Shown one piece after another: positions 10,799 through 43,101 of a stretch of 64,000 nucleotides of DNA. The notes beneath the pieces were generated by a model that was given only the letters and a program-made list of their open reading frames with translations, ran no database searches and was not told the DNA's origin. The translations under genes were made by a program, and so were the position numbers. Numbering within the stretch: the first letter of the stretch is position 1; the number at the start of each line of letters is the position of its first letter. This DNA is from a virus, in IMG/VR virus record IMGVR_UViG_3300033149_007571, positions 20,822 through 84,821 of that record; one strand, written 5' to 3'.

Positions 10799-11215
10799 AT
10801 GGGTAGGATGCGGAAGACTCCGACCGAGCAAATGATAGATGCCGTTTGTGCAATCCACGAAGATGAATGTCCAACCCTGCCTGCAACATTTCTGCGAGGT
10901 CTTCGTGGAGCGTTAGATGCTGGTCTCAGTGCTGAGCAGATTACGGCGTTGCTTGTGTTGTTTACTGGTATCTATGAGGCGTCTAAGAAAGTTCCACAGG
11001 ATGAGTTAATACATCGAGCGTGTCTTCTGGCCAATGTTATGAAAGGAGACATTGTCGATCTATCTGAGCAACGAAGCCAAGCAGAGGCGAATCGAGAGTA
11101 CCGACGGCAACGCGAGGAACAGATTCGTCAGGAGAAAATTGCGAGGCTGAGAGCAAAGATCGAGGCAGAAGAAAATGGGTTAGAGGATTGGGAAAACGGC
11201 GGTTCGGAAGACTAA
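10799..11215 (+). CDS. Hypothetical protein
   Basis: ORF directly after the promoter; charged C-terminal helix. Confidence 0.65.
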   Translation: MGRMRKTPTEQMIDAVCAIHEDECPTLPATFLRGLRGALDAGLSAEQITALLVLFTGIYEASKKVPQDELIHRACLLANVMKGDIVDLSEQRSQAEANREYRRQREEQIRQEKIARLRAKIEAEENGLEDWENGGSED

Positions 11216-11263
11216 AAGGCCAAGGTTCACATCTCACCACTTTAAGTGCAAGAGGAGAAAGAT

Positions 11264-11644
11264 ATGGAAAAGCTGAAAGCGTTAGAACTGACCAAGTTGA
11301 GCGGGGTGTTGTACGATCAGATCAAAGAGGCTGTTGACAAGGTCCGCCTCAAAATTGCCGAGGCTTATGCGGACGGCACGATCACTTTTGCGGAGGTCTT
11401 CAATGTCGTCGGTATGATCGTCGGTGAACTGATTGGTGTGTTTCAGACGTTCCAAGGTATGAGCAATGCCGAGAAGAAGGAGGCAATCGTCGAGCTTGTC
11501 GACGAGGTATACAAGAAGGACGTTGCTCCCCTCGACATTACGTTCGTTCCCGATAGTATCGAGGAGATGTACATCGATCCGCTCATCGGACAGCTAGTAC
11601 ACACCGCTGCTGTTGCTTTGGTTGACTTCTTGTCCCCTAAATAA
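11264..11644 (+). CDS. Hypothetical helical protein (possibly lysis-associated)
   Basis: GAGGAG RBS before ATG 11264; amphipathic helices. Confidence 0.7.
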   Translation: MEKLKALELTKLSGVLYDQIKEAVDKVRLKIAEAYADGTITFAEVFNVVGMIVGELIGVFQTFQGMSNAEKKEAIVELVDEVYKKDVAPLDITFVPDSIEEMYIDPLIGQLVHTAAVALVDFLSPK

Positions 11645-11744
11645 GAGGAAAGTTATGCGGAAGGAGACAGATTGGGTTATGATTTCAGTGGGTCTCCCTT
11701 TGCCTGCTGAGATCTTTCATAAAGCGAATTGGAGAGTAACGTCA

Positions 11745-12038
11745 ATGAACCAGCGACAAAAACGAAAAGTGGCTCGGAGGGTATTCAATGAAGCGGCAAA
11801 GGATTTTGAGTTGACGCGTCGGGAGTTTGTCAAGCTGTTGAAGGAGAAGGACGACGATGCTTGGGCAGCGGTTGCTCTGGTTGGCAGTGGAGAGATATCA
11901 CCAGAGTTTCCCTGGAATGAGCTGATCAACATGATTTGGGCGATTGTGGAGTTTCTGGTGGTATGGCTCTTAGGTGATGACGGCGTCAAATGCCGAGAGA
12001 TACCAAACGAGCAAAACCAAGAGGAGGAAAGAGAATGA
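11745..12038 (+). CDS. Hypothetical protein with C-terminal hydrophobic helix
   Basis: GGAGAG RBS before ATG 11745; LINMIWAIVEFLVVWLL. Confidence 0.6.
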   Translation: MNQRQKRKVARRVFNEAAKDFELTRREFVKLLKEKDDDAWAAVALVGSGEISPEFPWNELINMIWAIVEFLVVWLLGDDGVKCREIPNEQNQEEERE

Positions 12039-25058: not shown

Positions 25059-25450
25059 TTGCAACGATCTGTCGATTGCTGAATCCTCGCTCGAAGGCGG
25101 TGCAAATGGCTGACCGAGCATCTGCCCGGTTGGTTGAAGCTCGCAAGCGTTTACAACATGATCTGAATCAGATCCGGAGGGTAGAAAAGAAAGCATCAGC
25201 GATTTTAGAAAGAATCTTGAGTATTGCCGAAACCTTGAGCGAGGATGTTGATTTGAGCCAACGACGGTTAGCTCAAGCGGAGAAGGCTCTTGAGGCGCTT
25301 CGTTCCGAACATGATGTTGATGCCGACGTTGTGATTCCTGCTCTTCAATCTCGGTTTCGTGAAATCCAGGCAACCAGTGAAGCCAAAATTGCTGAGTCAA
25401 ACTATAGGCGAGCAGCAGCCACACCAAAAACTGTTGAGCGAGATATCTGA
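25055..25450 (+). CDS. Coiled-coil protein upstream of portal
   Basis: Heptad pattern; overlapping start/stop with both neighbours. Confidence 0.6.
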   Translation: MIATICRLLNPRSKAVQMADRASARLVEARKRLQHDLNQIRRVEKKASAILERILSIAETLSEDVDLSQRRLAQAEKALEALRSEHDVDADVVIPALQSRFREIQATSEAKIAESNYRRAAATPKTVERDI

Positions 25451-27129
25451 TGTCACAGGCACTAATGAAGGCTATCAGACGGAGTGAGATGGTAGCTAGA
25501 GAAGCGTTCGAGTCTGCCGTGCGTCGCAAGGCGGTTGGTGGGTTGGATTTTATATCCACCGGTTCGATTGGTGGGTTCAGTGATTGGCGAAAGCAGCAGG
25601 TATACTCCGAGCGTTATAATTTGATGCGGGGTTGGGTGTATGCTGCTATCAATATTCTGGCGTCTGAAGCTGCTGGTCAATCTCCGATGGTGGCAAAGTT
25701 GAAAGGGGTTTCTACTAATAAACCCCAAGGGAAAAAAGCCTACTTCCATCGTCGGATGACGAAGACTGCCCGAGCGAAGACTGCAAGCGTCGAGTATGAG
25801 GTTTTGGAAGATCATTGGATCAAGGATCTTCTCGATCAACCAAATCCAGTACAGAACAAGTGGCAATTCGTTTATTCCTTTGTGGCCAACTTGTGTTTGA
25901 CAGGTTGGTCGTATGTGGTGATTGGAAAGCACAAGAAGAAATTGGAGATGTACTGTCTGCCGACGACTTGGTGTAAACCCATTCATGATCCTGTTCCGTT
26001 TGCTATGCTGAAAGTGAAGAATCCGAGAAAAGTGGGAACGGAACCAGCTATTTTGAAACGTGAACAATTTGGGTTTGCTCATTTGCCTAATCCGTCCGAT
26101 CCGTTGAGTGCATTGGCTCCTGCTGCGGCTCAGATAATGGCCATTCGGATTGATGATCACATTCAAACAAGTCAGGAAGCATTCTTTCGCAATGGCATCT
26201 TTCCATCGGTGATTATTACAGTTGGCAAATCTCCATATGTAGATTCCGAAGGCCGACCTGTGTTGACGGGATCTCAACGACGTCAAATCTTTAGTGCGGT
26301 GAAGAAAGTTTGGGGTGGCGTTGCCAACTATGGCAATCCTGCTATTGTTGACGGGTTGATTGAAAAGATCGATCGCTTGTCAGCAACACAAAACGAGATG
26401 GGTTGGCAACGATCCGAGGACAAGGTGAGAACTCGGATACTCTCGGCATTTGGTATCCATCCTTACATTCTTGGGGAATCTGTTTCTGTTGGTGGTTATG
26501 CTCAAGTAGCAAACATCGAAAAGCGCTTTTACAAGCGGGTGAATACCCTGCTCGATATGCTCTCTGTGTTGTTGACGAATTTATTGGGTGGTTTGGATAA
26601 GAAGGAGCGGTTGCTGATTTGGTATGAGGAGTGTGAAGTGTCTGATCCTCAACTTCGTCAGCAATTGCTCATAACGATGCGCAAGAACAATGACATTACC
26701 CAAAACGAGATGAGGGCCGAGGTGGGTTTCCCTCCCGACGAGGATGACAACGAGGCTGAAATCCCGCCCGTGATGTTGCAGGGAATTAGCACGATACTGG
26801 GATTATTAGGCAGCGGTCGGGTCCAGAAGGAGCAGGCTGTTGCTTTGCTTGAAGGATTAGGTCTGTCGAAAGACAGAGCCGAGGGTATTGCGGGTGTTGG
26901 TTTGGCTGAGCCTAAACCTTCAGCTCCACCTAAGCCCCCTCTGAAACCGCCGCAAGGCAGTGAGGAGGGCGAGTCATCTGAGGAAGGAGGGGAGGGAGAA
27001 GAAGGCAAAATTGAAGAAGCAATGGAAGAGTTGAAGCGAGCCAATGGACTATTGGAGAAGGTTATGTCTCCCGATTTGATAGCTGAAGAGATTCTGGAGA
27101 GCATAGGACACGAGTGTTTGGAAGAATAA
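25450..27129 (+). CDS. Portal protein (HK97 family)
   Basis: WVYAAINILA, LLDQPNP, FFRNGIFPS, ILSAFGIHPYILG, ITQNEMRAEVGFPP; Pro-rich and acidic C-tail. Confidence 0.92.
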   Translation: MSQALMKAIRRSEMVAREAFESAVRRKAVGGLDFISTGSIGGFSDWRKQQVYSERYNLMRGWVYAAINILASEAAGQSPMVAKLKGVSTNKPQGKKAYFHRRMTKTARAKTASVEYEVLEDHWIKDLLDQPNPVQNKWQFVYSFVANLCLTGWSYVVIGKHKKKLEMYCLPTTWCKPIHDPVPFAMLKVKNPRKVGTEPAILKREQFGFAHLPNPSDPLSALAPAAAQIMAIRIDDHIQTSQEAFFRNGIFPSVIITVGKSPYVDSEGRPVLTGSQRRQIFSAVKKVWGGVANYGNPAIVDGLIEKIDRLSATQNEMGWQRSEDKVRTRILSAFGIHPYILGESVSVGGYAQVANIEKRFYKRVNTLLDMLSVLLTNLLGGLDKKERLLIWYEECEVSDPQLRQQLLITMRKNNDITQNEMRAEVGFPPDEDDNEAEIPPVMLQGISTILGLLGSGRVQKEQAVALLEGLGLSKDRAEGIAGVGLAEPKPSAPPKPPLKPPQGSEEGESSEEGGEGEEGKIEEAMEELKRANGLLEKVMSPDLIAEEILESIGHECLEE

Positions 27130-28833
27130 ATGCTGAAGACACTTTCTAGTGATAAAGCGATCCTTTCCATTCTTCGTACCGCGACGAAAGAAGTCCAGGA
27201 GAAGCAGAGATCGGTCCGAGCCAAGAACATTCGTCTTATTCATAAGGCTTTGGCCGTTCGTCAGTTTACCAAGGCAGAGAAGGAGTTGACGGAAGCTCTA
27301 ATCCCCTTCTTCGTTGAACAGGGACGTTCGATGGTTGATCGATTGAAAAAGTTGGAAGTGAGTTCGACAAAAACTGTTGCTCCTTCTCTTGATTCTGCTC
27401 ATGCTCTTGCATCATTGATTTTTGATCCGAAGGAGTGGAGAGAAAAGCTAACGAATCGATTGTTGCCGGTCATGGCTCAAAAGATGGCCGAGGCAGGGGT
27501 TGCTCACTTGATGGCTTTGGGTATTGATGTGCGGAAAAAGGATCGGAAAGGTTTGAAGCATCTTCCTGGCCGACACGATCAAAGTAGTCATGGAAGAGGA
27601 GGAGGAGGGGATCGTGCTCCTCGGGATTTGTCTTGGAATGATGTCGAATTGGTGCCTCATAGTAAGTGGAGAGAAACGAAGGCTACTACCGCATCCGAGT
27701 GGGTAGATGAGCATATGGAAAGTTGGGAATCGTTACTTGCAGCCTATGAAGCATCTGGTCTGCCTCTTGGTTTGCTGAATGAGATTCCTAGATGGATGTT
27801 GGAATCTATAGCTGAGCAGTTGATTGAAAGTTTCGATCAGGATTATTGGGATGCGGTTTCCCAAACAACGATGGGAGATGCCGAGAAGGTATTGTCGAAA
27901 GGGTTGTCCGAAGGTTGGTCAATTCACAGGATGGGAATGGAATTGCGCCAATATTTCGAGGGAGGTGGGTTTCGATATGCACGGCGGCGAGCCGAAAACA
28001 TTGCGATGACGGAGTCTGCCAATGCTTTGAATGGAGCTCGCAAGGAGTCGGTGGTTCAATTGCAACAAGAGTTGGGTCCGCGGGTTCCGATCAAACAGGT
28101 GTGGTTGTCCGTTTTGAGTAACACGACTCGGGCTTCACACGCCATGTTGGATCAAGTGCCTGAGGATGAGAACGGGTTGTGGAATTTGTCAGGCTATATG
28201 ATTCCGTGGCCAGGTCATATAAGTTTGCCTCCTGGTGAACGCTGTTGGTGTTATTGTACTGTATCTATCGAGTTCGGAATGAATGCGACCGAAGCTCAAA
28301 GCATAATCGATGAGTATTGGCAACGAGTACAAGAGTGGGAGTCAAAGGGGTATGTTTGGCTTTGGGTGAAACACCTCCCTGGTCGGCATGACCAGAGCAG
28401 TCATGGTCGGGGAGGGGGCAGAAGAGCGAGAGCCTTACGTACCCATAAGCCAAGTACGGTAGAGAAACAGCGAAGGGCCAAAACTGAGCAAGCTCGGTTG
28501 GCAAAGTTGATCGGTGGGATGAACACTGACAATAATGATGCATTTGATGTTTTACTTCAAGGGCATGCGATCGAGGTTAAATGTGTGATGGATAACAATA
28601 ACGACAAGATCACGATGCATCCTAAATCCCGTCGGCGGAAGGAATCTTATGCGAGGAAAAATGGAATGCAACCCCATACAGTTGCTATCGACATTCGACG
28701 AGGGCAACGGGCGTTTTACTACAGGAAGGGTATTGGTTCGTTTCGACTGCGAAACATGAAAAAGGTGACGATAACCGAGCTAGAGGCAATAGTAGCGGGA
28801 AAATCAGTAGTTCCTTCTGGAGTGGTATACTGA
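27130..28833 (+). CDS. MuF / SPP1 gp7-like minor head protein with C-terminal PD-(D/E)xK nuclease-like domain
   Basis: RAENIAMTES, KQVWLS...TRASH, IPWPGH..LPPGERCWCYC; C-terminal AFDV...IEVK; two KHLPGRHDQSSHGR motifs. Confidence 0.85.
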   Translation: MLKTLSSDKAILSILRTATKEVQEKQRSVRAKNIRLIHKALAVRQFTKAEKELTEALIPFFVEQGRSMVDRLKKLEVSSTKTVAPSLDSAHALASLIFDPKEWREKLTNRLLPVMAQKMAEAGVAHLMALGIDVRKKDRKGLKHLPGRHDQSSHGRGGGGDRAPRDLSWNDVELVPHSKWRETKATTASEWVDEHMESWESLLAAYEASGLPLGLLNEIPRWMLESIAEQLIESFDQDYWDAVSQTTMGDAEKVLSKGLSEGWSIHRMGMELRQYFEGGGFRYARRRAENIAMTESANALNGARKESVVQLQQELGPRVPIKQVWLSVLSNTTRASHAMLDQVPEDENGLWNLSGYMIPWPGHISLPPGERCWCYCTVSIEFGMNATEAQSIIDEYWQRVQEWESKGYVWLWVKHLPGRHDQSSHGRGGGRRARALRTHKPSTVEKQRRAKTEQARLAKLIGGMNTDNNDAFDVLLQGHAIEVKCVMDNNNDKITMHPKSRRRKESYARKNGMQPHTVAIDIRRGQRAFYYRKGIGSFRLRNMKKVTITELEAIVAGKSVVPSGVVY

Positions 28834-30249
28834 TGGGCTATTGGTTAGAAGATGCTGATGAACGATGGTTGGGAGACTTTGCTACGAACAAGGGTATTAT
28901 GGATATGCGTCGTGATGGTCCTGATTCGTTGATAGAGTTCCTCGATATGGGAGAGGCTGACGATGACCTGATCGAGAAGATCATAGCAGATGTGGAGAAG
29001 TCCAAGATTTTGGAGTATATTGCCAAAATGCTTCAGGGAGTGAAAGCCCCGGTTTTTGTCACGGATGGTTGTGGTGAGGTCGAGGGGGGTGTGAAGCATC
29101 TTCCTGGCCAACACGATCAGAGTACTCATGGAAGGGGAAAAAGACGAGGGACTTTGTCTGAAACATTGGAGGTTGTGAAGAAGGGAACAGGATACGACGA
29201 AAAGACAATTAGAGATGCAATGACTGGCGATTGTTCAGCGAACAATCCGGCTCGTGCGAAGGTGAGAGCAAAGGTGGTAGGGGCTATTTACGCTAGTGGA
29301 ACTATGCAGAAGGATGCTGTAATGGATGTTCTCGATGGCGATAGTTTCGCGGCGAAGAAGAGATTGATAGAGAAGAAGACCATAGGAAATAAAAACGAGG
29401 CAGTCAAAGAGTTGGCAACTGTTCCAGAGTACGATCTGCACGTGGTGGGGAAGATCATTGTGATGGACCATCCTATGCTGGGCGAGGCTATGTGTGACAT
29501 GGCAACGAGAGATCTGACAATGGGTGCTAATACGCGATCAGGCTCGTACCGTCATGAGTTAGGCCACGCTGTGAGGTCTGCGATGGGTGGTGATTCCTAT
29601 CTGAGCAAACGGGTGATAACGAGAGCAGTGAATAAAGAGTATGGGAAGGTCGAAAAGAGAATTGCCAAGAATCCCGCAGGTGTGGAGAAGAAACTAAGTC
29701 ACGAGTGGTATGAGAAAAACTATGGGGTTGCGGGTAGGAGATCGCTTGATCATTGGGAAGAGAATTTTGCTGAGCATTATCGTTTGTATCATCGAGAAAT
29801 ATACAGAGATCGGCATGAAGGTGGGGGTGGTAAGCATCTAGCTCAGTATCGAGAACGTCATTCGGGAATGGCAAAGATATTTGATGCTTGGTACACAGGA
29901 GCATTACTCGGGAGAGAACTATCTAAGTAGCGAAGGGTGTGGAATGGCGATTGGTATTTTCAATAAGCATATCTTGGTTGGGGTAGAAGAGAACGGAGAG
30001 ATCCGTCCCGAAGACAACGGGTTCGGTAAGAAGTTAGATAGTTGGTTGAAAAATGGAGTTCCTGGGTTAGTCTCGTCGATGAGAGGAGATAAGATCATAG
30101 AAAAGGAGAGGACGATAGCGACCGATCATCCTTTGTTCGGTTTGGCGTTATTAGAACATTTCGAGCGTATCGGTTGGGAGGTGAAGGAGATCAAAGGTGA
30201 TGGGAGAGGTACGAAGCACCTCGTTCATGATCAGAGTACACACGGTAGG
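27556..30249 (+). repeat. Four copies of the K-HLPGxHDQS(S/T)HGR peptide motif (27556-27597, 28369-28410, 29094-29135, 30214-30249)
   Basis: KHLPGRHDQSSHGR x2, KHLPGQHDQSTHGR and KHLVHDQSTHGR read directly from three consecutive ORFs. Confidence 0.95.
28833..29930 (+). CDS. Acidic N-domain + motif + zinc metallopeptidase (HExxH, lethal-factor-like) effector
   Basis: YRHELGHAV at 29547-29573 and downstream WEENFAEHY third-ligand motif. Confidence 0.72.
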   Translation: MGYWLEDADERWLGDFATNKGIMDMRRDGPDSLIEFLDMGEADDDLIEKIIADVEKSKILEYIAKMLQGVKAPVFVTDGCGEVEGGVKHLPGQHDQSTHGRGKRRGTLSETLEVVKKGTGYDEKTIRDAMTGDCSANNPARAKVRAKVVGAIYASGTMQKDAVMDVLDGDSFAAKKRLIEKKTIGNKNEAVKELATVPEYDLHVVGKIIVMDHPMLGEAMCDMATRDLTMGANTRSGSYRHELGHAVRSAMGGDSYLSKRVITRAVNKEYGKVEKRIAKNPAGVEKKLSHEWYEKNYGVAGRRSLDHWEENFAEHYRLYHREIYRDRHEGGGGKHLAQYRERHSGMAKIFDAWYTGALLGRELSK

Positions 30250-32484
30250 AAGATGGGCGCTCACCCAGGTTGGCCAGTAACCGAGACTGTGGACACGACG
30301 AAATGGCCAGCTCATAATGTGGCGGCTAAATATGCGGCTAAGAAAATTGCGAAAATCGAGAAGGCTGCAGCAGAAGGTGATTGGGATTTTGTTCTTTCTG
30401 TTCACATCAAATCGAAAGTGCCTAACTCGTATCAGAAGGGGATTCTGAAGGCCAAAGAGGTTGTATTAGCAAAACATCAGAAGAAGTCGGCAACTCAGCC
30501 AAAGGCCGACGGATTGAAGTACGAAGGCAAATACGTTAATGCCGACGGATGGAAGAAAGTGTCGGGGAAGCTCGGTACGCAGGAGGGTGGAAAGTTTGTG
30601 GCAGACGATGGCAAGACATACTATGTCAAGTTCCCGAGTGATCCAAAGATAGCAGTCAATGAATTGATTACAAATAAGTTGTATGAAGCAGCAGGATCTC
30701 CTGTGGCAAAGGCCCACCTCGTTAAGAGGAATGGCGAGGTCGGTTTTGCTTCTGAGTGGATATCAGATGCACAGAAAGCTAAATGGGGCACCCATGAGCA
30801 TAGGGATTTGGCGGCCCAGGATTTTGCCACTCACGCTTGGTTAGCGAATTGGGATTGCGTTGGTCATGTTTCCGAGATGGATAACATTCGTGTTGTTGGG
30901 AGTGGTCCGAATGCAAAAGCATTGACGGTAGATGTTGGCGGAGGAATGTTCTATAGAGCGCAGGGGGCTGAGAAGACGTTTGGCGCCAAGGTAGCGGAGT
31001 GGGACACCTTGAGGGATCAGTCCATTAATCCGTCTGGTGCTAAAGTTTTTGGTAACATGACAAAGCAGCAGTTACTAGCTAGCGCTCAGAAGGTGACCAA
31101 CGTTAGCGATGAAGTCATCGACGGGATTTGCCAGAAGTATGGAGGGATGCATGGGTTGAAGACGCCTGCTACGTTGGCGACTCGATTGAAGAAGAGGCGT
31201 GATGCTATTGAAGATAGGATGCTCAATTTAATGGGTTCTGCATCTCCCAAGAAAGTGCCCAAGCCCAAACCCGGACTCGTTCAAACGCCTGAAGGGAAGT
31301 TGGCAAAATCCGTTCCGATTGGACCAACTGTTAAATCTCCTCCAACGATCAATTCGAAGTATAACGGACCTATCTATCAGCCTAAATTCAACAAGCTCCA
31401 CGAATTGGCATCGCAAGGGAAGTGGGATGAGGTTGCTAATTTCAAGACTAACCCAAACGCGAAACAGTGCTATGCTAAGAAGCTGCATCAATACAAGCAA
31501 GATCTGTTACAAGCTGCTGGTCAGGGTGGAAAGGTTGAAAAGGCGACGACCCCTGTAAAATCTAAGTATGGGAAAGCCCCGAAAATAGACACTAGTCTAT
31601 TTCCGGAAGAACCTGTCTTTGTCTCAAAAGATCAAGCTCATATTGCTCAAAACAAAGCTGCGGTGAAGACGGCATTGAAGTATGCCAAGGCTGGGGACGT
31701 TGATGCTTTGAAAGGGATGGAGTTGCCTCCAAGTCCAAAGTTGAAAGCATTCCACGAAGATTTAGTTATGAGTCTCTCGTCTCAGCTTCACCCATCTCCT
31801 CCAGCGAAGAAACTTAGTAAATCGTTAGCGAAGATTGACAAGTTGGCTGCTCCTATTGTGGGATCGAAGGGGAGGAGCCATCAGTCAAAAGTGGGTAAGT
31901 ATCTTGTGCTTGGGGAAGCAAATCCGGTACCATCGAGTCTGAAAGTGGTGGAGGGTGAATGGCTAGAGCCTTCTTGGTCAGCAGGGAAGAGTTCGTATAA
32001 CAAGCTGTCTGATGCCGAACGAGATGCTGTCGTGGATTACACAGGAGGTGGTTATGATTCTATGAACAAGAGACTTCGCGGTCATGGAAAGTTGCAAGCA
32101 CACGATTTGAATGCTGCTAGGGGAGTGACCAAGGCTGCTATTGATCTGACGCCTGGTAAGTTGCTAAGTCGCAAGCACAACCTTAGTCCAAAGAGTGCAA
32201 AAGCCTTACTAAAATCGGTGGGGAAAGTGATTCAGGATAGGGGGATCGTCAGTACATCCACAAGTCCGTATGTTTGGTCAGGGAATGTTGTTTGGAAGTT
32301 GAAAGTTGGTCCTGGTGTGAAAGGATTGCCTTCTAGACTCTTTAGTGACAACGCACCCGAAGATGAGGTAATCCTTCCGCCAAATACGAGATATTTGGTG
32401 ACGAAGGCTAAAGAGAAAGATGGAATATACCATATGGAAGGAGTGATTCTTCCCTTCCATCCTTCACAATGTTGTCCTCCATAG
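29944..32484 (+). CDS. N-domain + motif + HipA/PI3K-like kinase + R-S-E ADP-ribosyltransferase effector
   Basis: Kinase: LGTQEGG..YYVK, NELITNKLY, WLANWD, DNI, VDVGG. ART: YTGGGYDSMNKRLR, LSRK, VSTS, EDEVILP. Confidence 0.8.
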   Translation: MAIGIFNKHILVGVEENGEIRPEDNGFGKKLDSWLKNGVPGLVSSMRGDKIIEKERTIATDHPLFGLALLEHFERIGWEVKEIKGDGRGTKHLVHDQSTHGRKMGAHPGWPVTETVDTTKWPAHNVAAKYAAKKIAKIEKAAAEGDWDFVLSVHIKSKVPNSYQKGILKAKEVVLAKHQKKSATQPKADGLKYEGKYVNADGWKKVSGKLGTQEGGKFVADDGKTYYVKFPSDPKIAVNELITNKLYEAAGSPVAKAHLVKRNGEVGFASEWISDAQKAKWGTHEHRDLAAQDFATHAWLANWDCVGHVSEMDNIRVVGSGPNAKALTVDVGGGMFYRAQGAEKTFGAKVAEWDTLRDQSINPSGAKVFGNMTKQQLLASAQKVTNVSDEVIDGICQKYGGMHGLKTPATLATRLKKRRDAIEDRMLNLMGSASPKKVPKPKPGLVQTPEGKLAKSVPIGPTVKSPPTINSKYNGPIYQPKFNKLHELASQGKWDEVANFKTNPNAKQCYAKKLHQYKQDLLQAAGQGGKVEKATTPVKSKYGKAPKIDTSLFPEEPVFVSKDQAHIAQNKAAVKTALKYAKAGDVDALKGMELPPSPKLKAFHEDLVMSLSSQLHPSPPAKKLSKSLAKIDKLAAPIVGSKGRSHQSKVGKYLVLGEANPVPSSLKVVEGEWLEPSWSAGKSSYNKLSDAERDAVVDYTGGGYDSMNKRLRGHGKLQAHDLNAARGVTKAAIDLTPGKLLSRKHNLSPKSAKALLKSVGKVIQDRGIVSTSTSPYVWSGNVVWKLKVGPGVKGLPSRLFSDNAPEDEVILPPNTRYLVTKAKEKDGIYHMEGVILPFHPSQCCPP

Positions 32485-32493
32485 GAGAGCGTT

Positions 32494-33012
32494 ATGGCAA
32501 ACGAGCAATCAGGTGTACGGGATATGGGAAGTGAGTTCCTGTTTGTGGAAGCACTCAAATCCATTCAGGAGAACGAGCAGAGGGGATGGCTTGGCGATAA
32601 ATACGTTGTCGAATCGATCTTACGGAATGCTTTGTTCCAAGTGCTTGATGGGCTTCCCCAACTAGCCGAGAAGGGTATGAAGGTAAGTGACTTCGCTTAC
32701 AGGGTTGGAGCGAGGGAGATGAGAGTATTTCTGAGAGAGAACTCTCAAGGGCATAAGGGTGTGAGGGGGTGGAATGTACCAGGAGGTGTTGATGTTTTTG
32801 CTGCTAAATGGGTAGGCGTTGATGCCGATCGTCCTATCGAAAGGCTGATCGGAGTGTTCCTGGAGATGGTGAGTGAGGCTTTGGAAATTGAGAATCAAGC
32901 CCAAAACGGCGAGTCGGCAGAGCAATGGATGTGGCAAGTTGATGAGTTGTTGGAAAGATATGCTTTCATTTTAATTGGGATCTCTCCGGCAGATCAGGTT
33001 GTTTTGCTATGA
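32494..33012 (+). CDS. Acidic helical protein, putative immunity protein for the upstream effector
   Basis: Directly follows the ART gene with AGGAG RBS; function inferred from position only. Confidence 0.55.
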   Translation: MANEQSGVRDMGSEFLFVEALKSIQENEQRGWLGDKYVVESILRNALFQVLDGLPQLAEKGMKVSDFAYRVGAREMRVFLRENSQGHKGVRGWNVPGGVDVFAAKWVGVDADRPIERLIGVFLEMVSEALEIENQAQNGESAEQWMWQVDELLERYAFILIGISPADQVVLL

Positions 33013-33212
33013 TTGACGAGATTGACAGTATCTTCTCTAAGGAGAGGGATCGGGTAATCCGATCGGTTTTGCAGAGTAAAGCTAAGCGCAACAAGCCGTG
33101 TCCTTGTGGGTCTGGTATGAAGTTCAAACATTGTTGTTTGAGAAAGATTCGAGATGAGCAGAACCAACGGACGAGGAGATCTCCGTCACGGGGATCGTCT
33201 ATTACCAAGTAG
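33009..33212 (+). CDS. SEC-C metal-binding motif protein
   Basis: RNKPCPCGSGMKFKHCC. Confidence 0.8.
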   Translation: MIDEIDSIFSKERDRVIRSVLQSKAKRNKPCPCGSGMKFKHCCLRKIRDEQNQRTRRSPSRGSSITK

Positions 33213-33489
33213 CAAGGAAGTGAGATCATTGTTGGTGGAGATGCAACCGAGGTTTCTCGCCATTTGCGAATTGTATGGAAGAGCCTTTGGCGGGCAACCT
33301 CTGCAGATACCGAAAGATCTTGAACCTCACTTTATTCGATGGAGGCAGGTAACCGTTCGCCATCGTGGTGGAGACATACGAAATACCGAGTCCGAGTGGA
33401 AATCAATGAAGTTAATCGCTCAGTGGATTATCGATGTCAATTGCAAACTGAGAGGTCAAAGGCCGAAGAAGCTCATTTGGACGGAGTAA
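33154..33489 (+). CDS. Hypothetical protein
   Basis: ORF in the operon; start uncertain. Confidence 0.55.
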   Translation: MSRTNGRGDLRHGDRLLPSSKEVRSLLVEMQPRFLAICELYGRAFGGQPLQIPKDLEPHFIRWRQVTVRHRGGDIRNTESEWKSMKLIAQWIIDVNCKLRGQRPKKLIWTE

Positions 33490-34107: not shown

Positions 34108-34124
34108 ATATGGGAGAAGACGAG

Positions 34125-34769
34125 ATGAGAGTAGCTTTTGGTTTAGGAGCGGCGACGGGTTTGGCAAGCCGGGTTTTGACGATCACCCGGATGCCTAGAG
34201 CCGGTGACGTGCTTCCAATTGCCCCTCAGTACAATGCCAACGTGGGGGCTGCGGCAACCACGGCCGTGGTTACAGGACTCCCTGAAAACACGATGTGGCA
34301 GGCACGACTTCGAGACACACTTACTGACGGGACAGTGAATTCGCCAGATAGTGTTTTGAATTTCCACACGGGAACAAATTTCTTTCCCGGTCCTGCTGAC
34401 AACGAAACGGGACGGTTACGGATTCTCTGGATGGAAGACGAATCGAGTTCGAGTAGCTCTTCGAGTGTGTCGAGCGAAAGTAGTTCTTCGTGGTCGAGCC
34501 ATTCGTCTTCGTCAAGCTCGAGCAGCAGTTCTTCGGTGACATCGAGTTCTAGTAGTTCTTCGGTGACATCGAGTTCTAGTAGTTCTTCGGTGACATCGAG
34601 TTCTAGTAGTTCTTCGGTGACATCGAGTTCTAGTAGTCCTTCGAGTGCTTCTAGCACGTCGAGTTCATCGGAATCGTCGAGTAGCCCTTCGAGCTCGCAA
34701 AGCTCGATGTCGAGTGCCTCCAGTACGTCGAGCAGTTCCGTAAGTAGTTCGTCTTGGTCGTCTGCGTGA
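34125..34769 (+). CDS. Putative virion protein: beta-sandwich (Fn3-like) domain + ~108-aa poly-Ser tail
   Basis: VVTGLPENTMWQARL Fn3-like strand; EDE followed by Ser-rich tail ending WSSA. Confidence 0.7.
   Translation: MRVAFGLGAATGLASRVLTITRMPRAGDVLPIAPQYNANVGAAATTAVVTGLPENTMWQARLRDTLTDGTVNSPDSVLNFHTGTNFFPGPADNETGRLRILWMEDESSSSSSSSVSSESSSSWSSHSSSSSSSSSSSVTSSSSSSSVTSSSSSSSVTSSSSSSSVTSSSSSPSSASSTSSSSESSSSPSSSQSSMSSASSTSSSSVSSSSWSSA
34530..34637 (+). repeat. 27-bp tandem repeat x4 (encodes SSVTSSSSS)
   Basis: TCTTCGGTGACATCGAGTTCTAGTAGT, four exact copies. Confidence 0.97.
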
Positions 34770-35233: not shown

Positions 35234-35535
35234 TGCCTTTTCTCAGCTACGAGCGGTTGCTGCTAGCTGGTGGTGGGGTGGTTCATACAGGAGCCGCCTT
35301 AACGTTTCCTAGCCCCTGCCAACGGGTGATGATCCAAGCAGATGGCGGAGACATCCGATACACATTGGATGGAAGCAATCCGAATGGGGTGCCAGGACGT
35401 GGAATGATTCTCTATAATGGAGAAGCTCCAGTGTGGTTTGAACGGGAAGATTTGGTTAATTTTCGGTTTTGTCGTTCAGTACCAGCAACCGCGACGTATT
35501 TGAACGTTCATTACTATGCTCCGAGGGATGTGTGA
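35233..35535 (+). CDS. Small beta-rich virion/decoration-like protein
   Basis: VMIQADGGDIRYTLDGSNP...GMIL. Confidence 0.6.
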   Translation: MPFLSYERLLLAGGGVVHTGAALTFPSPCQRVMIQADGGDIRYTLDGSNPNGVPGRGMILYNGEAPVWFEREDLVNFRFCRSVPATATYLNVHYYAPRDV

Positions 35536-37607
35536 TGTCTGATCAATCAATCCATGACGAACTATTGGCTCTCGTTCGATCTCGTGGTCAAACAAAGTTC
35601 AATCGTGGCATTTTGACTGCCGATCGATACGTGAAGACAATTCAAGATGCGATCGGAGTTCAATCTTGCTATCGACATATGTGTCGAACGGATGGAGGGG
35701 GTTGGGCATCGTTTGATGATGTAATGAAGAAAGCAGCAGGAACGTTGACTTTCAATGATCCTGATATGATTGTTTTGAAAAAGAGGGAAGAGGTTCGACT
35801 GCCCTCGAAAATAGAACGGCCGAAAAACACTTTGATGGTGTTTCGCCATGTTCTTACAACCAGTAAGAAGGATCGGGATGGTGATATCCTTCGGACGAAG
35901 GGAGCCAAAGTTGATCCGAAGATGTTGCTATTGTTCCAACACGTTCATACAATGCCCATTGGAAAGATGTTAGCGGTTGCTTCTCACACGAAAGATGAGT
36001 TGCAGCTTTATTCTTGCATCGTAGATATGAATGAGTTGAGTCATGACTGTGCTGTGATGATCGACAACGATATGGGTCGATTTTCGCACGGTTTCCGGGC
36101 ATTGGACTTCTTGGAGATCAAGGCGAGAGATCGGGAAGGGGTGGGTGGATTTGATGTCAAGTCGTTCGAGATCCTTGAGGAATCGCTCGTGTCGGTTCCT
36201 GCTAACCCCGATTCACAGACGCAGGAAGTCATCTTGTCATTAGTTGAGGGGGGTAAACTGACGAGCGGGTTGTTGAAAGACTATGGAGCAAGCATACGGA
36301 ACCAGCGCCCCATGTCAGTACCAGTTAACTTAGATGTCAAATTGCTAGTCAACGGTCAGGAGGTGAAAGGCAATGAGAACAAGTCCAGAGACGAAGAGAG
36401 AATCGGAGAAAACGGCTACGCCAGCACACCAAAAGAAGCCAATGATGTATTCGACGAAGAGCAAACAGGGGGAGAAGAAGCAGTTGAAGACAAGGAAGTA
36501 GTATTGGGAGAGAAGTATGGATTGGTGAGCAATCTGGACGACTCTTGGGAGGACATCGCTAGCCGTTTGGGTGATAAGGTACGGACGTTTCTGCTGGGGG
36601 CGGGTGTGCCTTTAGGGGATCGTGATTGGACTCTTATCATCGGCACTTATTCAGATCGTGTTGTAATAGCAATCGATAGACAAGGAACTTACGAGTATTG
36701 GCAAATCAATTGGAGGATGGAGGAAGGCGATCCTCAACTCCAAGGAGAGCCAAAGCAAGTAGACGTCGTCGTTTCATCAGAGGTTATCGAAAAAATGAAG
36801 GCCATCCGGGGCCAGACCAGTTATCAAGTAGAAGGACAAAAGCCTTACCCGAATGAGCATGCTATTCGTCTCAACGATCCAGATAAGTACAAGCGAATCC
36901 GTCGTCAGAATGATAAGTTTGGTCCAGGTATTCATGCCATTTTCGGTGTGACCGAGGATGGCAAAACTGAATTGCAATCTATCCGCTTCTCGGTAGATAA
37001 GTTTACAGCAGACGAAGCCCGAGAATGGTTGGAAGAGCATGATTACAAAACGAGCGGTTTTGAACCGGCGAAAGCCAAACCGAAGGAACAGGCTAAGAAG
37101 GAAGGCAAACAGCTTATCGACGACGATGTGTCGGGTGGCTTTGAGGCTACCCCTCCAAAGTTTGATAACGATGAGGAAGTGAAGAAGATGGTCTGTCCCG
37201 AATGCGATTATGTCGGTTTAGGAAAAGGAGGCAAGTGTCCTGAGTGCGGTGCCAAGCTCATTCCGAGGAAGGATTATACAATGGAAAAGCTCGGGCGTGT
37301 GTTGAGCAAAGCGAATGAAGCTAAAATCCAGGATGCTATTGAAGACTTGGCTGAAATAAGTAAAATGGACATACCACGGAGTTGCAAAGCTCTTGTGGCA
37401 TCCGCGCGTAGAAAGCTAACCGATGTGCTTGCATCTTTGGGAACCGAGCAGAGGGTCGAGAAAACTTCTGTAAGAGAAGCAATGGCCATTGTTCTTGCCA
37501 AGGGTGGACGCAACGAGATTCTAGTGTTGAGGACGCTATTGGATGTACTGGAGGCTTGTCAAAAGCAAGATGATGTTGTCAAACAGTACGAAAGTTTGTT
37601 GACGTAA
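35535..37607 (+). CDS. HK97-type prohead protease with long modular C-terminal extension
   Basis: DRDGDIL, LLFQH..PIGK, FSHGF, EESLVSVPANP; extension includes PYPNEHAIRL domain, capsid N-arm copy, CPEC-CPEC ribbon, KLGRVLSKANE. Confidence 0.9.
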   Translation: MSDQSIHDELLALVRSRGQTKFNRGILTADRYVKTIQDAIGVQSCYRHMCRTDGGGWASFDDVMKKAAGTLTFNDPDMIVLKKREEVRLPSKIERPKNTLMVFRHVLTTSKKDRDGDILRTKGAKVDPKMLLLFQHVHTMPIGKMLAVASHTKDELQLYSCIVDMNELSHDCAVMIDNDMGRFSHGFRALDFLEIKARDREGVGGFDVKSFEILEESLVSVPANPDSQTQEVILSLVEGGKLTSGLLKDYGASIRNQRPMSVPVNLDVKLLVNGQEVKGNENKSRDEERIGENGYASTPKEANDVFDEEQTGGEEAVEDKEVVLGEKYGLVSNLDDSWEDIASRLGDKVRTFLLGAGVPLGDRDWTLIIGTYSDRVVIAIDRQGTYEYWQINWRMEEGDPQLQGEPKQVDVVVSSEVIEKMKAIRGQTSYQVEGQKPYPNEHAIRLNDPDKYKRIRRQNDKFGPGIHAIFGVTEDGKTELQSIRFSVDKFTADEAREWLEEHDYKTSGFEPAKAKPKEQAKKEGKQLIDDDVSGGFEATPPKFDNDEEVKKMVCPECDYVGLGKGGKCPECGAKLIPRKDYTMEKLGRVLSKANEAKIQDAIEDLAEISKMDIPRSCKALVASARRKLTDVLASLGTEQRVEKTSVREAMAIVLAKGGRNEILVLRTLLDVLEACQKQDDVVKQYESLLT

Positions 37608-37638: not shown

Positions 37639-39243
37639 ATGTTTGAGTTGACGAAGGCTTTACGGGATTGGCTTATAGCTAATCAAGACATCTCAGAGGA
37701 TTCCTCTGAGGAAGAGTTCCGTATGGAGGCCGGAATGGCGTTGGTAGATGGATCGCTTACAAGAGAGAAATTCATTGAGCTAACGACTCCTCCGAAGGCA
37801 ACGGAAGCTAATGAATTCAGTAAGAAGCTGGATGTAATGACTGCCAGCCTTGACAGCTTGGCTAAGGTTTTGACTGGGAAGAAAGAGGGGTTGGAGACTG
37901 AGAAGAAAGTTGATCTTGGCAATGGAAACAAGGATGAGGAGTTGGAGGATATGTCCAGGGTCATTGCTGATCAAGGAGGGACACCAAGCGAGTCTGAAAC
38001 TACCAAAGCTCGGGTGAAGACGGTTGATGAGATCTTCAATACAACCAAGTCGGCGGTTGTCTATCCTTCCTCGACGAGAGGGGGGAAGCCCCATTCGTTT
38101 GCAGGACAGCCTGTAGTGTATCAGCAAAGACCGATGGACACGCCGAGTGAATTGGACAAGGCTTGTGCAGGAGCGTGGGCCAAGCTCCACTTGGCTTTGC
38201 AGCTTCCGCAAATTTGTGGACCTCCAAATCTGATTTGGGATCGTTTGCCCGAGATCGATAAGCAACTTCTTCACTATCTCTGTGAGAAGGGAATGTGGGA
38301 TGAGACGGAGAAGGACAATCAGTCTCGACCTCGGTTGGTCAAGGGTTATCGAGGAGGTATAAAGCAGTTGATCGACGATGTAAACTCGGGTGGCTTTGAG
38401 GCCGCTCCGATTGTATTCGACGATCAGGTGATCGAGACTCCTTTGCTTTATGGCGAGTTGTATCCGCTAGTCAATGAGGTGCCTCTGCCTCGCGGACGTC
38501 GGGTAGAAGCTGTATCGATCGGAACCGTCACTGGCGGTTGGGGTGGAATTGACGCAACGAACATCGCTTTGTTTAACACGGCAGGTTTTGTTGCTGCATT
38601 CGATACAACGATCTATCGATGGGAAGGAGCAGTGGTTATTGGGCTCGATTTCCTATCCGATACACCCATTGACTTCGGTTCAACAATTACTCGTCAGTAT
38701 GGTGAAAGGTTGCTTGAGGACTTGGATGATGTTGTTGCTACAGGCAATGGCACTAACCAACCTCAAGGTATCATGAATGCTGCTGGAACTACTGCTGTTG
38801 CCTTTGGTGGGGCGACCACGCTCGGAGCCTATGAGACTTTGCTATTTGCCGTCCACAAGAGAGAACTCAAGAATCCGACGATAGATCGGACATTTGTGTT
38901 CTGTGGAACGGAAACTAGTTACAGTCGGGCAAGAGCGTTGAATGTGACCGCAGCCGACCAGAGAAGGTTGGGAGGAGGACACGCTGATCAAGGGGATTAC
39001 CGATCCTATCGTTGGATGGGTCGTCCCTACAAGATCAATGAATCGTTAGCAAATACGCAGATTTTTGCCGCAGTGCTTGGGAGATATCGCATGTATCGGA
39101 GGAAAGGTTTTACTGTGAGGACAAGCACTGAAGGTGCGACGCTAATTCGAGCTAATGAGATCCTGATCTCTGTTACGGCTCGCTACGGCGGTCAGCTCGA
39201 GAGAGGAGCTTGTGCTGGCGTAACCACCACGGCTCCTGCGTAG
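37639..39243 (+). CDS. Major capsid protein (HK97 fold) with ~242-aa N-terminal scaffold/delta domain
   Basis: SGGFEAAP N-arm, LSDTPIDF, TGNGTNQPQGIM, WMGRPY; follows the protease. Confidence 0.92.
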   Translation: MFELTKALRDWLIANQDISEDSSEEEFRMEAGMALVDGSLTREKFIELTTPPKATEANEFSKKLDVMTASLDSLAKVLTGKKEGLETEKKVDLGNGNKDEELEDMSRVIADQGGTPSESETTKARVKTVDEIFNTTKSAVVYPSSTRGGKPHSFAGQPVVYQQRPMDTPSELDKACAGAWAKLHLALQLPQICGPPNLIWDRLPEIDKQLLHYLCEKGMWDETEKDNQSRPRLVKGYRGGIKQLIDDVNSGGFEAAPIVFDDQVIETPLLYGELYPLVNEVPLPRGRRVEAVSIGTVTGGWGGIDATNIALFNTAGFVAAFDTTIYRWEGAVVIGLDFLSDTPIDFGSTITRQYGERLLEDLDDVVATGNGTNQPQGIMNAAGTTAVAFGGATTLGAYETLLFAVHKRELKNPTIDRTFVFCGTETSYSRARALNVTAADQRRLGGGHADQGDYRSYRWMGRPYKINESLANTQIFAAVLGRYRMYRRKGFTVRTSTEGATLIRANEILISVTARYGGQLERGACAGVTTTAPA

Positions 39244-42276: not shown

Positions 42277-43101
42277 ATGGAACCAAATTCAGCTTTGAAT
42301 GGGGTTCCCATTGCATATCAAATTGCTGTCACCTACAATTGCAATGCGGCTTGCAAATGGTGTGTACAACATCTTGATGTTATTCGATGGAATCACATTG
42401 ATACGAATATAACAGTCCGAGAGGTACGGACTGCTGCTCATTTTCTGAAGCTCTATGGAATACGTATTGGGAAACTACGGGTGACTGGTGGAGAACCAAT
42501 GGTACACCCGAATCTGAGAGAAATATTGTTTGCTGTCAACGAAAGTTGGGCTCCGAGGACGGGTTGGTTTCGCATCTATAGCAATGGTAAGTTGCCCATT
42601 CTTCGCGGTACTCCAGGGAGGTTTTCTGTTGTTCCACTCAATAGTGTGAAGAAGACAGCTTGTTTTACTCCCTTCAATGTTTCTCCCGCCGACTTGGGTA
42701 TTGAACCCGTTTTCGGATTTGTGCGACCTTGTGTGCAACAAGTTCGTTGCGGTCGGTGGTTCGATTGTTTTGGGTTTACTTCTTGTGGTGTAGCTGGTAT
42801 TTTGGGAACAATGTTGGGCGACGATTGCTACGAACCCTTGCCTGTGTTGATGGGACGACCGAGCGTCTGTCAGCATTGCCTCTACAGTTTACCGAAGGCG
42901 CAGCGGCATTCCATCACGCGACAGGTTCACGCTGGGAAAATTCCGGAGATTACAAAAACGTTCAAGCAAGCAATTGAGCGATGGCATGACAGTCCTCCAA
43001 GACCTCGTCGGTTTTGGGAGCGTTTGCCAGAAAAGTTTGTGCCAGGGGAACTGAATGATGAAACCAAACGATCCAAATGTAATGCAGGTAGTCCGAGTTG
43101 A
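42277..43101 (+). CDS. Radical SAM protein
   Basis: CNAACKWC (CxxxCxxC), VTGGEP, YSNG; C-terminal Cys cluster. Confidence 0.88.
   Translation: MEPNSALNGVPIAYQIAVTYNCNAACKWCVQHLDVIRWNHIDTNITVREVRTAAHFLKLYGIRIGKLRVTGGEPMVHPNLREILFAVNESWAPRTGWFRIYSNGKLPILRGTPGRFSVVPLNSVKKTACFTPFNVSPADLGIEPVFGFVRPCVQQVRCGRWFDCFGFTSCGVAGILGTMLGDDCYEPLPVLMGRPSVCQHCLYSLPKAQRHSITRQVHAGKIPEITKTFKQAIERWHDSPPRPRRFWERLPEKFVPGELNDETKRSKCNAGSPS

Follow-up and report, generated by a model that had tools for sequence, protein, structure and literature searches.

The head module of an uncultured phage, contained in a 64,000-nucleotide stretch of DNA (the window: bases 20822-84821 of the 84,821-base IMG/VR virus record IMGVR_UViG_3300033149_007571), carries four consecutive genes, MuF and the open reading frames (ORFs) ORF2, ORF3 and ORF4, which on balance we think probably form an effector array of the MuF-toxin and polyvalent-protein kind: three enzyme units, each with its own partner, chained to one another by fusions. 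Phage MuF toxins and polyvalent proteins are both known, and the gap addressed here is how several dangerous enzymes are made, silenced and loaded together. The window and about 60 related loci yield three new specific enzyme/partner families, comprising a PD-(D/E)xK-like domain with an acidic protein of ~85 amino acids (aa), an HExxH domain with an ~85-aa module, and a kinase plus ADP-ribosyltransferase (ART) unit with an ~165-aa acidic protein. A preliminary description of this DNA had proposed that the immunity protein for one toxin is fused through a shared motif to the N-terminus of the next toxin. The specific pairing and the fusion in that proposal are borne out, whereas immunity retained by the producing cell is not, the partners seeming to be co-packaged.

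Four genes behind the portal gene

ORF2 starts within the end of MuF, and spacers of 13 and 9 nucleotides (nt) separate ORF2 from ORF3 and ORF3 from ORF4, in line with the four consecutive, closely spaced genes after the portal that had been described before; all four are translationally coupled. The genes and their domains, with isoelectric points (pI), are as follows.

27130-28833, + strand: MuF gene; PF04233 (E 5.3e-5) and phrog_2468 head morphogenesis (E 5e-18)
27130-27555, + strand: MuF N-terminal part, aa 1-142; basic, pI 10.2; 58-60% identity to the MuF N-terminal parts of relatives L001 and L002
27676-28368, + strand: MuF core, with PF04233 at aa 252-378; 66-70% identity to L001 and L002
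28420-28830, + strand: MuF_C, basic PD-(D/E)xK-like domain, aa 431-567, pI 10.9; conserved signature and ESM Atlas neighbours
28833-29930, + strand: ORF2; N-module, motif and HExxH domain
28833-29093, + strand: O2_N, the ORF2 N-module, aa 1-87, pI 4.1; candidate partner of MuF_C, a stand-alone gene in the closest relatives
29139-29927, + strand: O2_C, HExxH zincin-like domain, pI 9.3; 18 homologues, the domain always C-terminal
29944-32484, + strand: ORF3, ATG start at 29944; N-module, motif, kinase-like region and ART
29944-30210, + strand: O3_N, the ORF3 N-module, aa 1-89, pI 5.9; candidate partner of O2_C; 37 homologues at E ≤1e-3
30541-31203, + strand: HipA/HopBF1-like kinase region of ORF3 (HipA_C E 0.081, HopBF1 E 0.023; a weak assignment)
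31996-32481, + strand: ART domain of ORF3, pI 9.4; PF03496 E 4.7e-10, 39.6 bits against a cut-off of 23.4
32494-33012, + strand: ORF4, 172 aa, acidic (pI 4.6) and stand-alone; putative partner of the ORF3 ART

At 24.4 bits, the PF04233 match of the MuF protein falls under the Pfam cut-off of 29.6, and relatives L002 and L003 score above it. The C-terminal domain is the variable part of this protein: it is PD-(D/E)xK-like in the window and L001, an ART in L002 and an HExxH domain in L003, so the domains behind the motif are not invariant and change between related phages. The window's version ends, as had been proposed, with a motif (copy 2 below) and the basic domain MuF_C, within which a D, E-x-K and NDKIT-H do not vary among 27 carrier proteins, and the ESM Atlas model of the MuF_C protein has PDDEXK_14 and Hjc resolvase as structure neighbours at template modelling (TM) scores of 0.58-0.65. 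Searches of cultured phage records with the MuF_C domain and with ORF2 returned no match. The MuF gene of L001 (9965-12478) contains an intein-like insert (PF14890, E 1.2e-4, under the cut-off), inside which a 256-aa ORF runs on the opposite strand (11030-11800, -).

The composition proposed earlier for ORF2, an acidic N-domain followed by a motif and an HExxH domain, holds as well: the pI 4.1 module is followed by the motif at aa 88-101 and by an unannotated, putatively zincin-like family whose H-E-x-x-H and downstream E/D/E are invariant in alignments of 19 and of 13 sequences. For ORF3, which had been described as kinase plus ART, the ART clears its Pfam cut-off and the kinase scores are weak only. 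Sequence matches of the ART in the PDB include 8za7_B (E 4.6e-6), 6dre_B ('PAAR repeat-containing protein', E 1.8e-4), which we take to be the type VI secretion system (T6SS) toxin Tre1, and Lmo0066; by eye, from the translation, LSRK, STS and EDEV would correspond in their order to R, S-x-S and E-x-E. The homologue P0022 reaches HipA_2 at E 1.3e-4, under the cut-off, and the ORF3 kinase region is 34-45% identical to its counterpart in cultured-phage virion proteins and in the L028 polyprotein. A helical repeat of ~50 aa (F.S....NV..N ... GD...L ... SPK...Y) occupies ORF3 at ~31300-31950 and was seen by eye also in the HExxH proteins P0004, P0008, P0010-P0013, P0015 and P0018.

ORF4 is the stand-alone acidic protein that it was first taken to be. 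A set of 5.8 billion proteins, searched at near and longer lengths, returned only ORF4 itself, and the ESM Atlas held no usable match to it; O2_N and O3_N gave nothing significant in sequence and profile searches of the PDB, and NCBIfam and PADLOC nothing useful for the four proteins. Partner and enzyme have pI values of 4.1 versus 10.9, 5.9 versus 9.3 and 4.6 versus 9.4, with partners acidic or neutral and enzymes basic; judged by these values, their charges are complementary within each pair. The N-modules and ORF4 are mutually dissimilar, an all-against-all blastp giving nothing below E 0.3, and this rules out homology among the N-modules, an outcome that had been listed beforehand as contrary to the pairing.

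Each enzyme is followed by its own partner

O2_N is the near-constant neighbour of MuF_C. Its homologue comes next at all of the first seven MuF_C sites (window, L001, L002, L004-L007). A MuF_C profile led to 43 viral loci, from which ten duplicates with identical MuF_C sequence were dropped, and in 31 of the 33 non-redundant loci an iterated hidden Markov model places O2_N downstream of MuF_C, 23 times within -10 to +30 nt of the carrier stop; L037, which has O2_N and no MuF_C, lies at a contig end and was left out as uninformative. Among 27 MuF_C carriers scanned, six have a MuF domain, six a portal domain and most others no Pfam match, and because the carriers vary in this way, the MuF_C/O2_N pair must be kept across architectures. 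O2_N is stand-alone in 21/31 loci and fused to at least 160 aa of downstream sequence in 9/31, the fused part including a MuF domain five times, an ART once and MuF together with DUF3626 once.

The HExxH domain is followed in the same manner by O3_N. Eleven viral and 16 metagenome loci were found with an HExxH profile; after removal of near-duplicates (L012, L031, L033) and contig-end loci (L013, L017, L026, L034), 20 of these 27 and the window made 21 informative loci. In 15 of them O3_N begins right where the HExxH gene ends, four times (L016, L018, L021 and L029) as a stand-alone gene. Four more (L008, L009, L014, L027) have in the place of O3_N a shorter acidic module of ~45 aa with a D-(P/D)-L-(Y/F)-W-M-E signature, which is a gene of its own (51 aa) in L009, and L028 unites the HExxH domain with O3_N, here upstream, in a single polypeptide of 1936 aa. 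Nine of 36 O3_N homologues examined are stand-alone and 27 fused, with a junction motif within ~80 residues after the module in 17 of the fused ones; the payloads behind O3_N count established toxin families among them, with an ART in 5/8 proteins scanned and Zeta_toxin in 2/8.

The third link joins the kinase plus ART unit to ORF4. The L028 polyprotein ends in a region resembling ORF3 (45% identity over the kinase region, 44% over the ART), with an ORF4 homologue (32% identity, E 1.5e-18) beginning 4 nt past its stop. A matching kinase plus ART C-terminus is present in six cultured phages of ~90 kb (L089-L094: Yersinia fHe-Yen8-01, Pseudomonas Touem01 and Dolphis, Aeromonas ST4, Morganella Mecenats66 and Escherichia ECML-606-1), and in 6/6 of these as fetched, an acidic protein of 159-167 aa comes directly after it. 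Aligned by hhalign, ORF4 and the L028 protein match the six small cultured-phage proteins with 95% probability (E 3.1e-8, 141 columns). The third gene of the cultured phages encodes ~250-280 aa and is annotated as a NUDIX hydrolase or nucleotide phosphatase in 4/6 records; by analogy with BAH or Aph1, its product could be an enzymatic second antidote. In GenBank OR620963.1 (fHe-Yen8-01), the depositor applied the label 'particle associated' to three successive products, namely the ART protein, the ORF4-like one and the one behind it. Scans of viral contigs for close relatives of ORF3-N, ORF4 and the ART tail found none. In L048 (1437-1622, on the contig of L044), 60 aa similar to the C-terminus of ORF4 (42% identity, E 3e-11) come immediately after a stop codon, itself preceded by a GRF-type motif and Gly run; the piece could be a relic or be reached by read-through.

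Successors do not cross between pairs: over all loci, redundant ones included, MuF_C is followed by O2_N 55 times and never by O3_N, and HExxH by O3_N 19 times and never by O2_N. Toxin and next N-domain had been expected to co-vary, and the pairs do travel together in all three links. At the level of sequence, the three enzyme/partner pairings are thus conserved and specific. A recurring rule for the boundaries also emerges: an enzyme is separated from its partner by a stop codon, and a partner from the following enzyme by a stop or by the junction motif.

A junction motif at module boundaries

The peptide KHL(PGx)HDQS[ST]HGR occurs in four copies, two of them in MuF.

27556-27597, + strand: motif copy 1, KHLPGRHDQSSHGR, MuF aa 143-156, followed by GGGG
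28369-28410, + strand: motif copy 2, KHLPGRHDQSSHGR, MuF aa 414-427, followed by GGG
29094-29135, + strand: motif copy 3, KHLPGQHDQSTHGR, ORF2 aa 88-101
30214-30249, + strand: motif copy 4, KHLVHDQSTHGR, ORF3 aa 91-102

No further copy of the HDQ motif was found in six frames of the whole 84,821-base contig; two matches to a loose 'GRF'-type regular expression in the window, at 42595 and 62829, are chance. Of the two MuF copies, the earlier account reported the one that closes the core and omitted the first. Between the two MuF copies, 17/17 residues are identical and 13/17 codons different, so the peptide, not the DNA, is conserved and under selection. MuF copy 1 and the ORF2 copy differ in only 2/13 shared codons, and at least two of the copies may have exchanged DNA recently. 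A separate segment of ~20 aa, KQLIDD..SGGFEA.P, is common to an extension of the prohead protease and to the capsid protein (window 37107-37166 and 38362-38421); its sequence is unlike that of the HDQ motif, which is therefore probably not used in capsid maturation.

Comparison with other loci indicates that the HDQ form in the window is a rare, genome-specific variant of a widespread family of module-boundary motifs. At the alignment position of motif copy 2, L001 holds KYNPNRDPATGRF and a Gly run, and the closest relatives have KYNP(N/Y)(R/H)D..GRF with a Gly run at the same alignment positions. Junctions of other loci are of the types NxFCPTGxGGGxDxSC, NCGTGxGGFxxGNxC, CxRDxxGHCLP, CxxGERxDxTxCxP and GSGNFGHxGRPGxVGGS; the HDQ type recurs in P0002, P0021 and P0054, and variant forms of it occur in P0003 and L015. 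The type is mostly uniform inside one locus and different between loci. Regular expressions for these motifs gave 177 coding-strand matches in the stored loci versus 8 on the opposite-strand control, all 8 of the loosest type. A degenerate DNA pattern for the HDQ motif had 0 matches in genome contigs.

The motif had been regarded as a specific joint between immunity protein and toxin, and that part of the earlier account fails: the motif also joins the MuF N-terminal part to the MuF core and, elsewhere, portals, MuF proteins, short leaders and earlier enzymes to the next domain. As we read these alignments, it marks module boundaries in general. Far from the head module, a pair of neighbouring genes in L005 (8653-10384) has an identical 46-aa leader and a GRF-type motif in front of different payloads, one an ART-like domain (by eye; Pfam gives no family) and the other MuF_C, with an O2_N homologue after the second gene. 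Because the same leader stands on both genes, it cannot be immunity to the upstream gene.

Insertion of cassettes at the motif had likewise been predicted, and insertions or deletions are found at the predicted places, with gain and loss both possible. L001 and L002 are syntenic with the window (portal, MuF, protease, capsid) and have a stand-alone O2_N followed by a homologue of window 33154-33489; these closest relatives lack the block from ORF2-C to ORF4. The extra block in the window, 29094 to ~33150, opens with the motif and closes with ORF4 and a SEC-C ORF. Comparison of L051 with L054 reveals an in-frame block of FCSTG motif, ART, stop and 33 aa in the tail of an O2_N protein, and at MuF site 1 of L002 two inserted domains lie between two copies of the motif and its preceding residues, a site at which L001 has neither motif nor spacer.

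A probable chained array and the alternatives to it

In the array reading that we prefer, the enzyme units would be the PD-(D/E)xK-like domain on MuF, the HExxH zincin-like domain and the kinase-like plus ART region, with the specific small partners ORF2-N, ORF3-N and ORF4 encoded right after the respective stops. Each partner would bind the enzyme that precedes it, a relation that the basic/acidic charge pairs would fit, and the bound partner would most likely silence that enzyme in the producing cell and in the capsid. Fusion of two partners to the next enzyme via KHLPGxHDQSxHGR and a Gly/basic run would then create a chain, MuF > ORF2 > ORF3 > ORF4, that could be loaded together; the junction peptide itself may serve as a processing site, a hinge or a handle for a head component. 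The array could have grown by addition of motif-enzyme-stop-partner blocks behind an existing partner gene, if the order of events was as we infer, and the enzymes might be released by separation during ejection or by cleavage at the junction.

The partners appear to enter the virion, given that 5/9 fused O2_N modules are on MuF-domain proteins and that an ORF4-like protein is annotated as particle associated. With partners co-packaged, a co-packaged inhibitor or a tether fits better than classical immunity retained by the producer, and this suggests that the partners are travelling safety catches that also chain the cargo. Possible, yet in our estimation doubtful, is a more elaborate, non-covalent cargo 'train', in which the N-modules would clamp the enzymes and the chain, anchored on portal or MuF, would be loaded as a unit, stay harmless beside the phage DNA and be pulled apart when threaded through the tail, the junction peptide acting as handle or cut site. 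If true, the 'train' would be a general strategy, not described until now, by which phages load payloads of several enzymes, keep them silent and release them.

A number of observations weigh against the array reading. Our sampling ran from enzyme to partner, adjacent genes share descent, and synteny alone can mimic pairing. In the reverse direction, a scan of viral contigs with an O3_N profile recovered only L019, on the same contig as L010, and scans of metagenome and genome contigs with that profile recovered none. Link 1 misses in 2/33 loci (L070, L085) and link 2 in 1/21, L035 having neither module. In L015, an ART matching that of ORF3 (E 1.8e-8) is followed by a different N-module of ~70 aa, the motif and another ART-like domain. 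Some copies of the motif, at MuF site 1 and on the L005 leaders, have nothing to do with a partner. Sequence and profile searches of Pfam and the PDB gave no match of the HExxH family to any peptidase and no significant match for the MuF_C family, whose PD-(D/E)xK-like nuclease fold is a lead drawn from the conserved motif and the Atlas neighbours at TM ~0.6. Profile searches for an integrase or recombinase (PF00589, PF00239) found none, which leaves the lysogen-protection logic known for MuF toxins no more than a possibility in this phage. Finally, if the partners are co-packaged, an injected enzyme would arrive together with its inhibitor and an extra release step would be needed.

We consider it unlikely that the chain is a packaging tether without inhibition, with the N-modules as docking domains and the whole as a loading device, and such a tether would in any case be compatible with the array reading, not exclusive of it. 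A portal or MuF domain on 12/27 of the MuF_C carriers scanned agrees with a tether, as does O2_N at the N-terminus of a MuF-domain protein in five loci, where the pair would link two head proteins, and as do the particle-associated annotations of the fHe-Yen8-01 ORF4-like protein and the ART protein before it. Many partners have no cargo to tether, however (21/31 O2_N and 9/36 O3_N are stand-alone), and the invariant catalytic-type residues of MuF_C and the HExxH domain are those of enzymes plausibly needing control, not of mere docks. Less probable again is that the N-modules are capsid-targeting propeptides and the motif a site for the prohead protease or the HExxH peptidase, with enzyme adjacency a matter of conserved gene order. 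The motif does stand at nearly every module boundary, with a flexible Gly run behind it; its type is mostly uniform per locus and differs between loci, as would be expected with one co-evolving trans-acting reader; the same 46-aa leader precedes it on the two L005 genes; and zincin-mediated processing of polyvalent proteins has been predicted (Iyer et al. 2017, PMC5512222).

A leader with a cleavage site would nevertheless leave the restriction of O2_N to MuF_C and of O3_N to HExxH, and the stand-alone partner genes, unexplained. Both candidate readers of the motif are weakened too. Cutting by the prohead protease is at odds with a capsid protein that has no motif and with a protease/capsid common segment of different sequence, and the HExxH peptidase cannot readily be a universal reader when most motif-bearing 8-kb loci lack it: an HExxH in a motif-bearing ORF lies within ~8 kb in only 3/19 motif-bearing MuF_C-sampled loci (32 scanned), and L069 has seven motifs and no HExxH. 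We give least credence, as very improbable, to the absence of any functional link, whereby the N-modules would be the N-termini of neighbours in a conserved operon and the motif a recombination-prone, functionless linker. Shared descent of these related head modules does inflate the counts, and the difference of MuF copy 1 from the ORF2 motif in 2/13 codons is consistent with recent recombination. Against this, the pairs persist while carrier, fusion partner, motif type and the stand-alone or fused state change, stop/start overlaps are typical, and an identical peptide with 13/17 codons changed speaks for selection on the peptide.

Setting of the array in the head module

IMG/VR classes the record as a provirus, ~90% complete. 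All large genes are on the + strand, and the head module runs from the portal through MuF, ORF2, ORF3, ORF4 and a 67-aa SEC-C ORF to, later, the prohead protease and the major capsid protein.

25450-27129, + strand: portal protein, start of the head module; PF04860 E 1.2e-26, phrog_12 E 4.7e-33
33009-33212: SEC-C zinc-binding motif ORF, 67 aa; PF02810 E 8.7e-10, overlapping the ORF4 stop
35469-37607, + strand: prohead protease, downstream part of the head module
37639-39243, + strand: major capsid protein, after the prohead protease

The SEC-C ORF belongs to the block that is missing from L001 and L002. Poly-serine tails ending in W-S are found on structural-region proteins of the window (34110-34769), L001 (13884-14684) and L002 (10344-11063), and are thus kept in relatives.

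Relation to known systems

The closest precedents are the MuF polymorphic toxins of temperate phages. A MuF toxin with an adjacent small immunity gene is experimentally established for Apk2 with IapK/Aph1 (PMC12226406) and for Bxa with Bsi/BAH (PMC11699363). In MuF toxins (Jamet et al. 2017, PMC5576092), a variable C-terminal enzyme or toxin is followed by a small gene, and homologues of that gene accompany the toxin domain. The array shares this plan, having a MuF domain beside the portal, a variable C-terminal domain and a small downstream partner (31/33), which in the window is the N-module of ORF2 and no separate gene. Two of the three window partners are fused to the next effector, in place of separate, producer-retained immunity proteins. 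Unlike in the published MuF toxins, the partner is here fused to a further effector twice in succession, the first enzyme is of an unannotated PD-(D/E)xK-like family that occurs also on portals and short leader proteins, a conserved junction peptide stands before each payload, and the partners appear to be packaged.

Polyvalent proteins, as treated by Iyer, Burroughs, Anand, de Souza and Aravind (2017, PMC5512222), are conflict-type enzymes strung together in or near head genes and predicted to be injected with the DNA; the same paper summarises phage T4 Alt. A word search of that text, with the supplement outside its scope, found no passage on partner or immunity modules between enzymes, on a linker or on an HDQ motif, and a full-text literature search for the junction motif strings, with the supplements of both that paper and Jamet et al. 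2017 outside its scope, found no relevant paper. The array resembles the polyvalent proteins in its ART and in its putative zincin-like, nuclease and kinase types, and relatives in L002, L008 and L028 are single proteins of 1200-1900 aa. In the head block of the window, at least two effector-type domains share a polypeptide, MuF with the nuclease-like domain and, in ORF3, the kinase-like region with the ART.

Behind cdiA and rhs, arrays of orphan toxin-immunity cassettes are reported to occur (described, reportedly, by Poole et al. in 2011), with a shared pre-toxin motif said to be the exchange point. The present array is like these in its tandem toxin-immunity modules, and it is unlike them in that its frames are open and coupled and its immunity-like modules fused to the next toxin, the orphans being, reportedly, mostly untranslated and provided with separate immunity genes. 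The internal proteins and Alt of phage T4, enzymes that include an ART, are packaged in the head and injected, and an N-terminal leader with a protease site directs their loading. The leaders of the array differ from those of T4 in being modules of folded size (85-90 aa) that are strictly specific for the upstream enzyme, and its motif is unrelated to the T4 site.

The junction-motif family is apparently undescribed and the three partner families are unannotated, and the motif family could serve as a handle for finding capsid cargo in metagenomes. An ART/ORF4-like pair is present in cultured phages of Pseudomonas putida, Escherichia coli and Yersinia, which makes one of the three links testable in a tractable system. 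Set beside MuF toxins, polyvalent proteins, orphan arrays and T4 internal proteins, the interleaving of partners with enzymes and their fusion into a chain seems to be undescribed, although many uncultured phages share this arrangement.

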